Below are positions 2,518 to 6,221 of a stretch of DNA of 64,000 nt, in pieces. Made by a program: the position numbers and the translations under genes. Source of the DNA: a virus; the UHGV virus genome UHGV-1378817; one strand, 5' to 3'. The first letter of the stretch is position 1. The number at the start of each line of letters is the position of its first letter. The notes beneath the pieces are model-generated. The model searched no databases. It was not told the DNA's origin and saw nothing but the letters and a program-made list of their open reading frames with translations.

Positions 2518-2594
2518 TGGTCTCCACGGAGTGATTCGAACACTCGACCTCCTGATCCCAAATCAGGCGCTCTACCAAGCTGAGCTACGCGGAG
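2518..2594 (-). tRNA. tRNA-Pro (anticodon UGG)
   Basis: Minus-strand cloverleaf: 7-bp acceptor stem, anticodon stem CCUGA/UCAGG with loop UUUGGGA, T-loop GTTCGAATC, encoded CCA. Confidence 0.7.
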
Positions 2595-2605
2595 TATTTA
2601 TTATT

Positions 2606-2680
2606 TGGTGGCCCTGGGTGGAATTGAACCACCGTCTGGCGATTATGAGTCGCTTGCTTGAACCTTCCAGCTACAGGGCC
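2606..2680 (-). tRNA. tRNA-Met (anticodon CAU; could be a lysidine-modified Ile tRNA)
   Basis: Acceptor stem GGCCCUG/CAGGGCC, anticodon loop CUCAUAA, T-loop GGTTCAATTCC, encoded CCA. Confidence 0.6.
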
Positions 2681-2681
2681 A

Positions 2682-2757
2682 TGGTGCTGATAGCAGGACT
2701 CGAACCTGCAACCTATTGATTACAAATCAATTGCACTACCAATTGTGCTACATCAGC
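2682..2757 (-). tRNA. tRNA-Thr (anticodon UGU)
   Basis: Acceptor GCUGAUG/CAUCAGC, anticodon stem AUUGA/UCAAU with loop UUUGUAA, T-loop GGTTCGAGTCC, encoded CCA. Confidence 0.65.
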
Positions 2758-2762
2758 AAAAA

Positions 2763-2861
2763 GGTGCTAGGTGATGGAATCGAACCACCTATGTATTCAA
2801 CGACTACCTCGTCTATTTTCAGGATTAAAAATCCTCGCCCTTGCCAAAGGGCTTACCTAGC
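2763..2861 (-). tRNA. type II (long variable arm) tRNA-like gene, anticodon ambiguous
   Basis: Good acceptor stem (GCUAGGU/ACCUAGC), D-arm and T-arm (GGTTCGATTCC) plus a long variable arm, but the anticodon arm only forms a 4-bp stem with loop UUUUUAA; no encoded terminal A. Confidence 0.4.
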
Positions 2862-2959
2862 TCAGTATGTTGACCATGTTGCTAGTCGGCGATGACGACT
2901 GTAACATTTGATAATCCGGTTCTGCTTCCGGCTTTCGCTTAATTACAAGGTCAACAATA

Positions 2960-3049
2960 TGGCTGAGGGTAATGGAATCGAACCATCATCGAGTCATCCT
3001 CAACGGGACGGTTTTCAAGACCGCTTGAGCACCATTGCTCCCTACCCTC
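2960..3049 (-). tRNA. tRNA-Ser (anticodon UGA)
   Basis: Acceptor GAGGGUA/UACCCUC, anticodon loop CUUGAAA, long variable arm, T-loop GGTTCGATTCC, encoded CCA. Confidence 0.6.
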
Positions 3050-3164
3050 ATTTATAAACAATACTGATAATGACACTGATTTTCGAGCAGTTAGTGACTA
3101 GTATAAACGACGATAAATATCAATGCCATTATCTGTATGATTTATGCATTTAAAACTATAAATT

Positions 3165-3251
3165 TGGTGGGGAGTGGTGGAGTCGAACCACCCGAGTCGC
3201 AATGACAATAGATTTACAGTCTACACCGCTACCTCTACGGGATAACTCCCC
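3165..3251 (-). tRNA. tRNA-Tyr (anticodon GUA)
   Basis: Acceptor GGGGAGU/ACUCCCC, anticodon loop CUGUAAA, long variable arm, T-loop GGTTCGACTCC, encoded CCA. Confidence 0.6.
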
Positions 3252-3255
3252 AATT

Positions 3256-3330
3256 TGGCACCCCGTACTGGACTCGAACCAGTGTCAACGGCTTAGAAGG
3301 CCGCTGCTTTATCCACTAAGCTAACAGGGC
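3256..3330 (-). tRNA. tRNA-Arg (anticodon UCU)
   Basis: Acceptor stem with G-U wobbles, anticodon loop CUUCUAA, T-loop GGTTCGAGTCC, encoded CCA. Confidence 0.65.
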
Positions 3331-3426
3331 ACTGGGTGGCTTTCTTTTACACCTTAGCCGCCAGAAAAGGTGGGAGACCATGTTTACAATATTACACTGT
3401 TAAGCAAAGTTTGTCAAGAAAATATT

Positions 3427-3765
3427 TTAGCTATTGCCAACAGGTTGTATTTCTGTGGTAAATGGCATAAAAGGTGCTGGTTTTTCAGCCTCTTCTACTA
3501 CCACCTCTTCCTCTTCACCAAACATCTCATCATATTCTTCCTGCATTCGGTCTGCCTTATCAAGAACATACTCTGCAATGCTTTGACGAATATTTTGTTT
3601 GGTTTTCGGGTCCAACATCAGCTCTCTTAAAACTTTGTGAGCTTCTGGAACCATCGCTATAAAAGATTCCTTCATATCAAGGATGTTCTTCTCTAGCTGA
3701 ATGGCGTTGGACTCCTCTTTCAGAGGTCTGCCTCTACGGCGACGCTTTTTAGTTGTATCCGCCAT
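3427..3765 (-). CDS. hypothetical protein, basic N-terminus and acidic C-terminus
   Basis: ORF 3427-3918 trimmed to internal Met (MADTTKKRRRRGRP...); minus-strand TTGACA-17-TAAAAT promoter and GGAGGA RBS immediately upstream. Confidence 0.45.
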   Translation of the reverse strand: MADTTKKRRRRGRPLKEESNAIQLEKNILDMKESFIAMVPEAHKVLRELMLDPKTKQNIRQSIAEYVLDKADRMQEEYDEMFGEEEEVVVEEAEKPAPFMPFTTEIQPVGNS

Positions 3766-4113
3766 GTTTCCTCCATTATCACGTGATAGGTGGATTTTAT
3801 CATAGCAAATACTGATTGTCAAGTTCGCCGCAGGGTGGTATTCCCTGCGACTTGCCCAGCGTCCTGGACCAGCAAGACCCAACAAGTGGGTTTTCCAGCT
3901 ATACCCATTACCGCACACAGGCTCGACCTTATTACAGGTTGGCTGGGGTCACATCGTCATGTGCTGGCTGCCCCTACCATTTTAAGTGTGGTGCACTATC
4001 AAGCCCTCTAAGGGGAACTCAGCCTTCTCCGAACCCTGTTTCAAAGCATCCGGAGATAAAGCCATCAAATTCATCTTTAAATTGGATATTCATCATAATA
4101 CACGAAAACAACC

Positions 4114-4356
4114 TCATTGTAAAGCACAAATAAATAAAACATACTTAATTTGTTTGTTATCAGGCTCAGGGTAGAAGTAGAAGATCTTGCTATCACCGAT
4201 CTGAACACCACCATCCCAACAGCATAGCCCATAACCCGTATTCATACAAGCTAAGTCGTTGGCAAAATCTATTGCATCATCCAGTGCACGAAATTCACCT
4301 TCATCTTCTAAATAATCCTCATTCATGGAACGAAAAACGAGCTTAACCTTAAACAT
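4114..4356 (-). CDS. hypothetical protein
   Basis: 80-aa minus-strand ORF in a gene-dense minus block. Confidence 0.35.
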   Translation of the reverse strand: MFKVKLVFRSMNEDYLEDEGEFRALDDAIDFANDLACMNTGYGLCCWDGGVQIGDSKIFYFYPEPDNKQIKYVLFICALQ

Positions 4357-4432
4357 AGCATTACCTGTAGACCTCGTAAGTTAAAATTGTATCACATCAT
4401 ATTGCAGATCTTATCAGGTAACATTATTTTTG

Positions 4433-4642
4433 TCAACAGATTCCGGCCTTATCTCGCCTGTCTGCGTATTCTTTAATCGCAACCTCCTCGGCATGGGTGA
4501 CTAAATCTTCAAAGTAACTCTCAAGCTCCTCGTCAATGTCAGGAAACCAACTCTTTTTCCTGTCAGTGTGAATCGCAGACTTGTTGAATTTATTACAGTT
4601 CTTTGCTACCGGATTGTTCATTAATCGCCCCTCAGCGTTCAT
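4433..4642 (-). CDS. hypothetical protein
   Basis: 69-aa minus-strand ORF; start region overlaps the stop of ORF 4632-5210. Confidence 0.3.
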   Translation of the reverse strand: MNAEGRLMNNPVAKNCNKFNKSAIHTDRKKSWFPDIDEELESYFEDLVTHAEEVAIKEYADRRDKAGIC

Positions 4643-5210: not shown

Positions 5211-5713
5211 AACTACCTCCTCTTCAAGTTATAGAAAAACTCACTGTATCGCTTTGTAACGAGCTTTTCTATCAAACTGGTGCGATTGCCTTACCTGGTA
5301 TAGTTTATATAGCTGTGGAGCGATTTAGGTGCCTTCTTGTCCGTTTCCACACATAAACTTCATCCAAGCTCGCGCGGGAGACTCTCAACCGACTCCTTAC
5401 GGCGCTGGCAAGCTTTCGTCGGTGGTCCACATCAGTGCTCGGCCTTTGGCCTGCGCTATCGCTTCGCTCCCACACATGTTAACAGACCTGCATGTATGCA
5501 CTTCTGTTATTGTGTGCACCAGGGAGGCCCGGCATCTCGCCCCTCGTAGGCGAGTGCCAATGAAGGGCCGACACTACCCATAGTAAGTAATAAATTTAAA
5601 ACATGGTACTTAGGATCTAGTATATTCTACATAAGTTAAGTATATGTACTTAGTACCATAAGTACTAGATCTTTTATTTTTTATTATTTAGTTATTTTAG
5701 TTATATTCTTTAT

Positions 5714-5795
5714 GTGTCCGTATCACGGACAGTTAGTGTCCGTATTACGGGCAGATGTGTCCGCGTGACGGACAGTAGTGTCCGTATCACGGACA
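5714..5795. repeat. four tandem copies of a 17-bp palindrome TGTCCGT-N3-ACGGACA (operator- or iteron-like array)
   Basis: Copies at about 5714, 5737, 5758 and 5779; two perfect (TGTCCGTATCACGGACA), two degenerate; spacing 21-23 bp. Confidence 0.6.
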
Positions 5796-5870
5796 GTTAC
5801 TAACCTCTGTTCCATAGCGAACATAAAACATACGAATCCTTATAGTACAGATATTTAAGTTTTTACTGGT

Positions 5871-6221
5871 CTAACCAGTTGTTGACATTCGAATAACCTC
5901 TTCTGGTGGCAAAACTTTGGAAAATGTGCATCTTTTACCTCTCCCTTGTGTGGATATTTCAACCACTCCTGCACATTCTAAAGTTTTAACGCACGCTGCT
6001 GCTTTTGTTTTCTTTATCCCAACATCTGCTGCAATTTTCCTTGTGCTGGGTGTGAAGCGTGAACTTCCTCCAAGCTTATACCAGTTGTGCAGGTAGCAGT
6101 ATACGATCTTGTCATACAAGTCAAGAACAACAACCTCCCCAGTTGTGTCATTCAAAACTTTTGACATAGACAGTATTTCAAGGGGGACTTTAAGATATAG
6201 CAGCTTATCCCCATCTTTCAT
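5871..6221 (-). CDS. putative helix-turn-helix DNA-binding protein
   Basis: 116-aa ORF; C-terminal segment TPSTRKIAADVGIKKTKAAACVKTLECAGVV looks like an HTH/winged-helix; sits next to the palindrome array. Confidence 0.35.
   Translation of the reverse strand: MKDGDKLLYLKVPLEILSMSKVLNDTTGEVVVLDLYDKIVYCYLHNWYKLGGSSRFTPSTRKIAADVGIKKTKAAACVKTLECAGVVEISTQGRGKRCTFSKVLPPEEVIRMSTTG

Follow-up and report, generated by a model that had tools for sequence, protein, structure and literature searches.

The tRNA array of phage T4 holds, on the same strand, the small stable non-coding RNAs rnaC and rnaD (species 1 and 2), which are presumably released by tRNA-processing enzymes. ROOL and GOLLD, of about 580 and 800 nt, are structured RNAs often found in phages or prophages next to tRNA genes, and T4-type phages carry promoter-early stem-loop (PeSL) cassettes, in which a stem-loop followed by an early sigma70 promoter is repeated through the genome. 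Theta ribozymes, which are minimal HDV-like ribozymes without P4, are associated with phage tRNAs, and in HDV-like ribozymes the catalytic cytosine is the first nucleotide of J4/2 (PMC10879173). More than 10,000 unnamed viral RNA candidates are listed in a 2023 catalogue of viral RNA structures (PMC10690425).

We analysed a stretch of 64,000 nucleotides (the window) from an rV5-like myovirus (Vequintavirus) that is 98.8% identical to Escherichia phage slur16. The comparative analysis shows that its minus strand encodes, at 4015-3829, a predicted non-coding RNA, the centre of which is the rV5-lineage copy of a widespread phage RNA class. Judged by Rfam and the literature, this class is apparently new and uncatalogued. 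The Rfam covariance-model scan that the original prediction had proposed was run on the whole window with Rfam 15 (4227 models) and gave no family match in 3766-4113 at gathering thresholds; none appeared at E<=10 when 3300-4500 was searched, and in 17 loci of other lineages the motif was likewise unmatched at E<=1. Searching the literature by exact sequence and by keyword, the supplements of the 2023 catalogue excepted, brought up no description, and the class may be among the unnamed candidates of that catalogue.

The RNA resembles rnaC and rnaD in being a small non-coding RNA encoded on the same strand inside phage tRNA arrays, but rnaC ends in a tRNA-like T-arm and acceptor, and in T4 the new motif is found about 6 kb from them, before vs.8. 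Homology to rnaC or rnaD was rejected, as the covariance model of the new class (R1, see below) scores at most 5.2 bits in T4 69,000-74,500. The new fold, of roughly 80-110 nt, also differs from ROOL and GOLLD in size and architecture, and the Rfam models of those RNAs gave no match.

The locus between ORF75 and ORF74

The segment under study (3766-4113) lies between two minus-strand genes, ORF74 (3427-3765) and ORF75 (4114-4356), where the original prediction had placed it, in a region covered by 119 Vequintavirus records in a phage database search. Along the minus strand, promoter P75 is followed by ORF75, the segment, ORF74, a tRNA promoter and a cluster of seven tRNA or tRNA-like genes (3330-2518; ARAGORN and Rfam). 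The cluster is on the strand of the RNA and begins about 570 nt downstream of the RNA core. tRNAs were found only at 2518-3330, and neither ARAGORN nor the Rfam tRNA model detected a cloverleaf in 3766-4113. For one tRNA-like gene of the cluster (99 nt, 2763-2861, minus strand), ARAGORN calls a four-base anticodon and the Rfam tRNA model gives 35.5 bits; an insertion or intron may interrupt this gene. Window positions 3300-4500 also match, at about 98% identity, eighteen records that bear the name 'Campylobacter phage' (host C. jejuni), which suggests that these genomes are mislabelled or contaminants.

The segment had been described as GC-rich within AT-rich surroundings. Its GC content is 47.4%, compared with 42.8% on average for the window (z 1.5; a value matched or exceeded in 7% of windows of that size), and the surroundings, at about 43% GC, are not markedly AT-rich. 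The description suits the sub-block 3823-4020, which has 55.6% GC (z 3.2; top 0.2% of windows), but neither the segment as a whole nor 4021-4113, which at 37.6% is under the window average. The segment is mixed, with a micro-ORF (4117-4019), the GC-rich block (4020-3823), and a promoter together with the ORF74 leader (3822-3766); its outer parts are micro-ORF and promoter or leader rather than RNA structure.

The highest GC peak of the 64 kb (59.5%) is at 5361-5560 on the minus strand (patch 5300-5600), in an ORF-poor stretch between rV5 ORF78 and ORF79 that is unannotated in most of the 119 rV5-like records. The patch has an MFE z-score of -2.1, and it had no homolog in L072, a diverged relative (loci from other phages and contigs carry L numbers), and no Rfam match; it may be a second non-coding RNA. 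At 5714-5799, just downstream of a gene annotated as a replication initiation protein (5871-6221, minus strand), there are four tandem repeats of 21-22 nt, each an imperfect palindrome (GTGTCCGTATCACGGACA), which look like iterons or operator sites.

The segment had also been called ORF-free. This does not hold for 4117-4019 on the minus strand, which carries a micro-ORF of 32 aa (MRLFSCIMMNIQFKDEFDGFISGCFETGFGEG); its ATG overlaps the stop codon of ORF75 (ATGA), and through this overlap it is predicted to be translationally coupled to ORF75. The micro-ORF is annotated in phage slur16 and matches phrog_6828 (E 5.5e-9), and it shows synonymous changes among relatives. In the diverged relatives L072 and L061 it is shortened to MKDEFDGF with a strong Shine-Dalgarno sequence, and a run of 21 nt (AAAGATGAATTTGATGGCTTT) stays identical. 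In the GC-rich part the claim fared better: a PHROG search with the three ORFs overlapping the RNA matched no family, and the reading frames are broken by 4-nt and 11-nt indels among close relatives. In addition, the loop of hairpin P3 of the RNA is 4 or 5 nt long among variants, which argues that it is non-coding, and the corresponding frame is closed in the T4 relatives. On these four grounds we rejected a protein-coding or decayed gene.

A promoter or promoter-like site was found on either side of the RNA. The near-consensus sigma70 promoter of ORF74, P74 (3794-3822, minus strand; TTGACA-17-TAAAAT with TG; promoter scan 11/12), lies downstream of the RNA, is annotated under that name in the rV5 record and is kept in L072. 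A promoter-like site at 4095-4123 (minus strand; TTTACA-17-TATTAT; promoter scan 10/12), a match to the consensus only and absent from L072, could possibly start a transcript bearing both the micro-ORF and the RNA. We found no informative domains in ORF74 and ORF75. The ORF74 product (3427-3765, minus strand) has an N-terminal KKRRRRGRP, an AT-hook-like or arginine-rich motif, and a long acidic C-terminal tail; the basic stretch, which is kept in L072, suggests a nucleic-acid-binding early protein.

A three-way junction inside a pseudoknot

The conserved core, supported by covariance model R1, covariation and blastn, spans 47 nt (3946-3900, minus strand) and has the form of a three-way junction. 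Helix P1 pairs 3943-3940 with 3907 and 3905-3903, leaving G3906 bulged. It closes hairpin P2, ACCU-GUAAUA-AGGU (3939-3926), and hairpin P3 (3924-3911), with a single C (3925) between the hairpins and UAA (3910-3908) between P3 and the 3' strand of P1. In the class consensus, P1 has 4-5 bp with a bulged purine after the first pair on the 3' strand, P2 reads ACCU-GUAAYA-AGGU, P3 reads NAGYC-loop-RCGG and the junctions are C and UAA; the junction and loop bases are almost invariant throughout the class. A metagenomic contig (L079) has two divergent copies (159-203 and 2460-2505), one of which has a GUAA tetraloop in P2.

We analysed covariation in an alignment of 45 distinct core variants. Part of this sample came from a pattern that fixed most of P2 and P3, and independent evidence therefore comes only from P1, from the outer helices H, S and P0 described below, and from two variable positions. 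Among the 45 variants 91% of the cells of the core pair, as opposed to 80% in shuffles (0/500 reach 91%), and pairing falls to 30-42% when the partners are slid. The three inner pairs of P1, which lies outside the retrieval pattern, are paired in all 45 variants with four pair types each, and the Y:R pair of P3 is only ever C:G (31 variants) or U:A (14). The G:U pairs establish the minus strand of the window as the sense strand of the RNA. R1, the covariance model built from this alignment, has a single match in the 64 kb, at 3946-3900 (68.7 bits, E 3e-23), the next best reaching 11 bits. Against shuffles, the whole segment has MFE z-scores of -1.6 on one strand and -1.3 on the other, and 3825-4020 has one of -0.4, none of them significant; we discarded single-sequence folding as a test, since it is uninformative for a pseudoknotted RNA.

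Two helices outside the core recur in nearly all lineages. Helix H pairs GGGG (3974-3971) with CCCC (3948-3945, minus strand), its 3' strand abutting P1, and helix S pairs CCAGC (3967-3963) with GCUGG (3899-3895, minus strand). As S runs from a 5' strand within H to a 3' strand beyond P1, the two helices form a pseudoknot. Besides the 5' strand of S, H encloses hairpin P0, ACAU-gacg-AUGU (3951-3962, minus strand), which can be closed by C3963:G3950; P0 is variable, usually lies within H and is missing in the L022/L069 lineage. H, S and P0 are all compensated in relatives.

Indeed, the window and L072 differ by whole-helix swaps in H (GGGG/CCCC and GGAAC/GUUCC, respectively), S (CCAGC/GCUGG and UGAGG/CCUCA) and P0 (ACAU-gacg-AUGU and CUACG-gacg-CGUAG). 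Other versions of H are GGGAA/UUCCC in T4, GGGAG/CUCCC in L009, AAAGG/CCUUU in JS98, AAAGC/GCUUU in GF and AAAGA/UCUUU in L046. S is replaced by GGGUA/UACCC in L027, GGGAG/CUCCC in L039 and CAAGAAC/GUUCUUG in L057, and P0 by CAUG-gaaa-CAUG in L027 and CAUC-gaaa-GAUG in L033. In subgroup A3 (12 sequences) 95% of the cells pair and 11 pairs show double changes, spread over H, S, P0 and P1 with two or three pairs in each (three in S), a result that 0/500 shuffles reach. A naive helix-swap test had low power for H and S; the position-constrained version found H in 19/22 cognate pairs versus 45% of non-cognate pairs. Among rV5-likes the spacer between P1 and S varies in length, with S retained.

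The rV5-lineage copy extends beyond this fold on both sides. A 5' domain of 41 nt (CCCCUUAGAGGGCUUGAUAGUGCACCACACUUAAAAUGGUA; 3975-4015, minus strand) is almost invariant in the strongly diverged L072 and L061, and in L072 a TTGACA-16-TATACT promoter lies a few bases before its start. Three 3' hairpins (3891-3877, 3876-3851 and 3849-3829, minus strand), visible in the sequence and in the MFE fold, are accessory, as L072/L061 do not preserve them and L087 has lost the first by deletion. The 5' domain, the flanking hairpins and the genome position would be lineage-specific packaging. The last of the three hairpins is the stem on which the original prediction had drawn (CGCAGGG-tggtatt-CCCTGCG); it exists as quoted, at 3829-3835/3843-3849 instead of 3826-3848, is specific to the lineage and directly abuts the -35 box of P74. 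The proposal of a structured non-coding RNA was thus right, given covariation over about 45 variants from unrelated phages, but its core is at 3946-3900 and not in the 3829-3849 hairpin. With its promoter this hairpin presumably resembles a PeSL cassette, a likeness that would concern the accessory hairpin and not the conserved core. The string 'GAGUUCCCC' at 4020-4012, which matches the start of the E. coli type I-E CRISPR repeat, is not conserved in L072 (GCGUAUCCC), and CRISPR-repeat mimicry was therefore dropped as chance.

It is most improbable, in our judgement, that the segment has no RNA function and is a decayed gene fragment, a chance fluctuation in GC content or only a stem-loop-plus-promoter cassette. 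The folding energies, which are not significant, and the hairpin abutting P74 would agree with such a view. It is contradicted, however, by the covariation data, which show a conserved and covarying core in unrelated phage families and environments, as well as by the strong and solitary R1 match and by the failure to find a matching protein family or a host counterpart.

Distribution among phages

A sensitive blastn search with the segment matched 849 phage records, with the 45-nt core at 75-99% identity. The 119 rV5-like records match throughout the segment; the remaining records, about 730, match only about 45 nt (window 3902-3946) at roughly 83-96% identity, and their flanks are unrelated. 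These non-rV5 matches fall in Tequatrovirus, Dhakavirus, Gelderlandvirus, Jiaodavirus, the Merlin group and Vibrio phages. Scanning IMG/VR and metagenome contigs with a degenerate pattern gave about 50 distinct core versions, among them one on a 360-kb jumbo-phage contig and others from marine, soil and gut samples. A broader pattern (ACCTGTAAYAAGGTC) returned mostly chance matches and a few new variants with an altered P3 (L202, L142, L136 and L201). The lineages with the RNA are thus Vequintavirus, Straboviridae including T4, Vibrio phages of 133-148 kb, the jumbo-phage contig and uncultured viruses.

In 185,579 bacterial and archaeal genomes the pattern matched six times, and none of the matches was a member of the class by the covariance model. 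No copy of the RNA was found in E. coli genomes and the only plasmid match was an rV5-like record, on which grounds a host or plasmid origin was rejected. The sequence is under strong purifying selection in many lineages. This selection, together with the lack of a protein-family match and of a host or plasmid counterpart, speaks against the decayed acquired fragment that had been offered as the other explanation of the segment.

Genomic neighbours and possible roles

Outside the T4-likes, a tRNA on the same strand lies within about 1.2 kb of the RNA in most lineages. The tRNA cluster is 0.5-0.6 kb downstream in the window and in L072, the Vibrio phages carry the RNA in an ORF-poor stretch of about 1 kb beside tRNAs, and in L069, L033, L037, L040 and L057 it sits between tRNAs. 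The 3' end of a tRNA is 2-5 nt before H in L067 and L041, and about 25 nt before it in L022 and L095. All-against-all BLAST of the ORFs within 5 kb revealed no neighbour protein shared across lineages. A strong promoter stands on either side of the RNA in L072. In L042 the core is followed, about 50 nt on, by an intrinsic terminator of 13 bp, and L041 shows a GCCC/GGGC hairpin with UUUUAUUUU after it, terminator-like with its U-run but too weak for the scanner's criteria. The two promoters of L072, the L042 terminator, and the start of the RNA 2-5 nt past a tRNA in L041 and L067 give it the character of a stand-alone gene. The distribution shows what appears to be a mobile module, encoded mostly inside phage RNA-gene islands.

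On balance, we favour the explanation that this conserved, pseudoknotted RNA class provides a stable molecule acting in trans through its invariant junction. One part of it, that the RNA is stable, made early and binds a conserved partner through the junction, we put forward only tentatively when it is taken alone. We infer that the RNA is transcribed, processed and stable. It would be made early from host-type promoters or within tRNA-array transcripts, and in the arrays the nucleases that mature the neighbouring tRNAs would release it. The rigid, invariant junction would bind a partner conserved across many bacterial hosts, for which a protein, an RNA of the translation or tRNA machinery and a small ligand are candidates; neither base-pairing nor a role as a DNA site would be its mode of action. 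Almost all bases of the junction and the loops are kept from enterobacteria to marine vibrios, which points to a universal interaction, and the translation or tRNA machinery, a metabolite, or catalysis are what it might involve. Some observations tell against this explanation: in T4-likes, the position directly 5' of vs.8 and an extra hairpin look cis-regulatory; the position 2-25 nt after a tRNA in several lineages would also fit a processing element; and the window copy folds no more stably than shuffled sequence.

The helices nest as H( S[ P0() H) 3WJ S], which is the topology of the nested double pseudoknot (P1, P2, P3, P4) of HDV-like ribozymes; H takes the place of P1, S that of P2, P0 that of P3 and the junction that of P4. 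The RNA could accordingly be a new self-cleaving or catalytic RNA, in which the junction would form the active site, with the substrate strand held in the H/S double pseudoknot; cutting at or near its own 5' end, it would free upstream tRNAs or separate cistrons. We consider this unlikely, though several features agree with it. Small ribozymes typically combine near-invariant junction and loop nucleotides with a compact fold, as this RNA does at roughly 80-110 nt, and H is usually preceded by an A/U-rich '..UA'. Like theta ribozymes, which are associated with phage tRNAs (PMC10879173), the RNA is phage-encoded and several copies start just 3' of a tRNA, 2-25 nt past its 3' end in L067, L041, L022 and L095. 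However, no conserved C follows the P4-equivalent, the spacer between P1 and the 3' strand of S being 0-6 nt long and unconserved (GUAUA in the window, GCU in rV5, none in L027 and L039). The loops of P0 are mostly tetraloops (gacg, gaaa or gcaa) with no room for P1.1, and the P4-equivalent junction, which has no counterpart in theta ribozymes, is the most conserved part of the new RNA. Furthermore, no Rfam ribozyme family matches, and hundreds of T4-like and rV5-like copies have no upstream tRNA. Slightly less likely again is a new catalytic class that combines HDV-like topology with an unrelated, invariant three-way-junction active core and that large lytic phages, including T4, would employ for processing tRNA-array and early polycistronic transcripts or for some other RNA-directed reaction.

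In all T4-like loci examined, the core lies between an upstream stop codon (that of denV or of an internal-protein gene) and vs.8, the gene of a P-loop protein, and an extra conserved hairpin, GCCA-NGGAA-UGGC, precedes the vs.8 Shine-Dalgarno sequence. In T4 itself (NC_000866) the motif is inside the annotated 5' end of vs.8 (64,253-64,912), and the counterpart of window 4015-3829 is at about 64,915-64,800. The T4 vs.8 N-terminal frame is closed in the relatives NBG2, S16, JS98 and others, where vs.8 starts about 110 nt downstream (loci L003, L004 and L102). The annotated N-terminus of T4 Vs.8 is therefore probably wrong, the start of vs.8 having been mis-annotated so that the RNA motif is currently counted as protein; our comparison would correct this annotation.

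These loci are the best fit for a cis-acting, riboswitch-like leader, in which the junction would be an aptamer for a metabolite or protein and would control read-through into, or translation of, what lies downstream: vs.8 in T4-likes, and tRNAs or ORF74 elsewhere. The element fills the gap 5' of vs.8 in every T4-like locus examined, with the conserved hairpin before the Shine-Dalgarno sequence, and is followed by the terminator in L042 and by the terminator-like hairpin with its U-run in L041. As in the small three-way-junction aptamers of the purine class, P1 closes two hairpins around a near-invariant junction and, in T4-likes, the RNA takes the place of a 5' leader. In contrast to those aptamers, it has no conserved class of downstream gene, no identifiable expression platform and an additional H/S pseudoknot, and copies also occur between tRNAs or between promoters. 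The genes downstream are unrelated across lineages, a strong promoter stands between the element and the next gene both in L072 and in the window, L034 keeps the element although vs.8 has been replaced by another gene, and we found no conserved alternative pairing. A leader function of this kind thus seems doubtful, about as much so as the new catalytic class.

We noted that the motif, which reads GUAAUA-A-GGUCGAGYC, shares its hexaloop and the string GGUCGAGUC with the GTPase-associated centre (H42-H44) of 23S rRNA. Helix 44 of E. coli 23S rRNA (L210) has its GUAAUA hexaloop at 1093-1098 and the 9-mer follows 7 nt on, at 1106-1114; in other bacteria the rRNA loop varies U/C at the same position as the motif. 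The GTPase-associated centre shares the three-way-junction form, with two hairpins of which one bears a GUAAYA hexaloop. An RNA mimicking it could titrate a ribosomal protein or factor, or be a decoy for a ribosome-directed host defence. We regard this as improbable, because the order of the hairpins and their pairing partners differ, with the shared 9-mer in a different pairing role, and because the resemblance was noticed post hoc. In a direct comparison R1 matched neither 23S rRNA, where its best score was 6 bits, nor the rplJ leader; mimicry of the L10 leader or the GTPase centre was rejected as a candidate on this basis, the identity of strings being a weak lead.

The trans-acting RNA that we favour would be an unrecognised and strongly constrained RNA common to large lytic phages of very different lineages. 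T4 and the rV5-like phages are genetically tractable, which makes its function directly testable. It would also add to a view of phage tRNA arrays as islands for further functional RNAs; abiF-type RNAs are found in the same arrays. abiF RNA (RF03085) scored above the gathering threshold in L027 (3624-3655, minus strand) and L057 (140-171, plus strand) and weakly in L065 (541-614, plus strand); these matches are in phage tRNA regions that also bear the new motif, but at other positions. Phage tRNA arrays may thus also host antitoxin-like or anti-defence RNAs. Type III antitoxin (ToxI-like) or abiF RNA was rejected as an identity for the new RNA itself, as there are no tandem repeats in 3600-4300, the abiF matches lie elsewhere and no copies of the class were found in bacterial chromosomes. 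In Vibrio phage 501E54-1, a TnpB-family RNA-guided endonuclease (L018 1955-3061) is encoded about 400 nt downstream of the RNA copy, beside tRNA genes.
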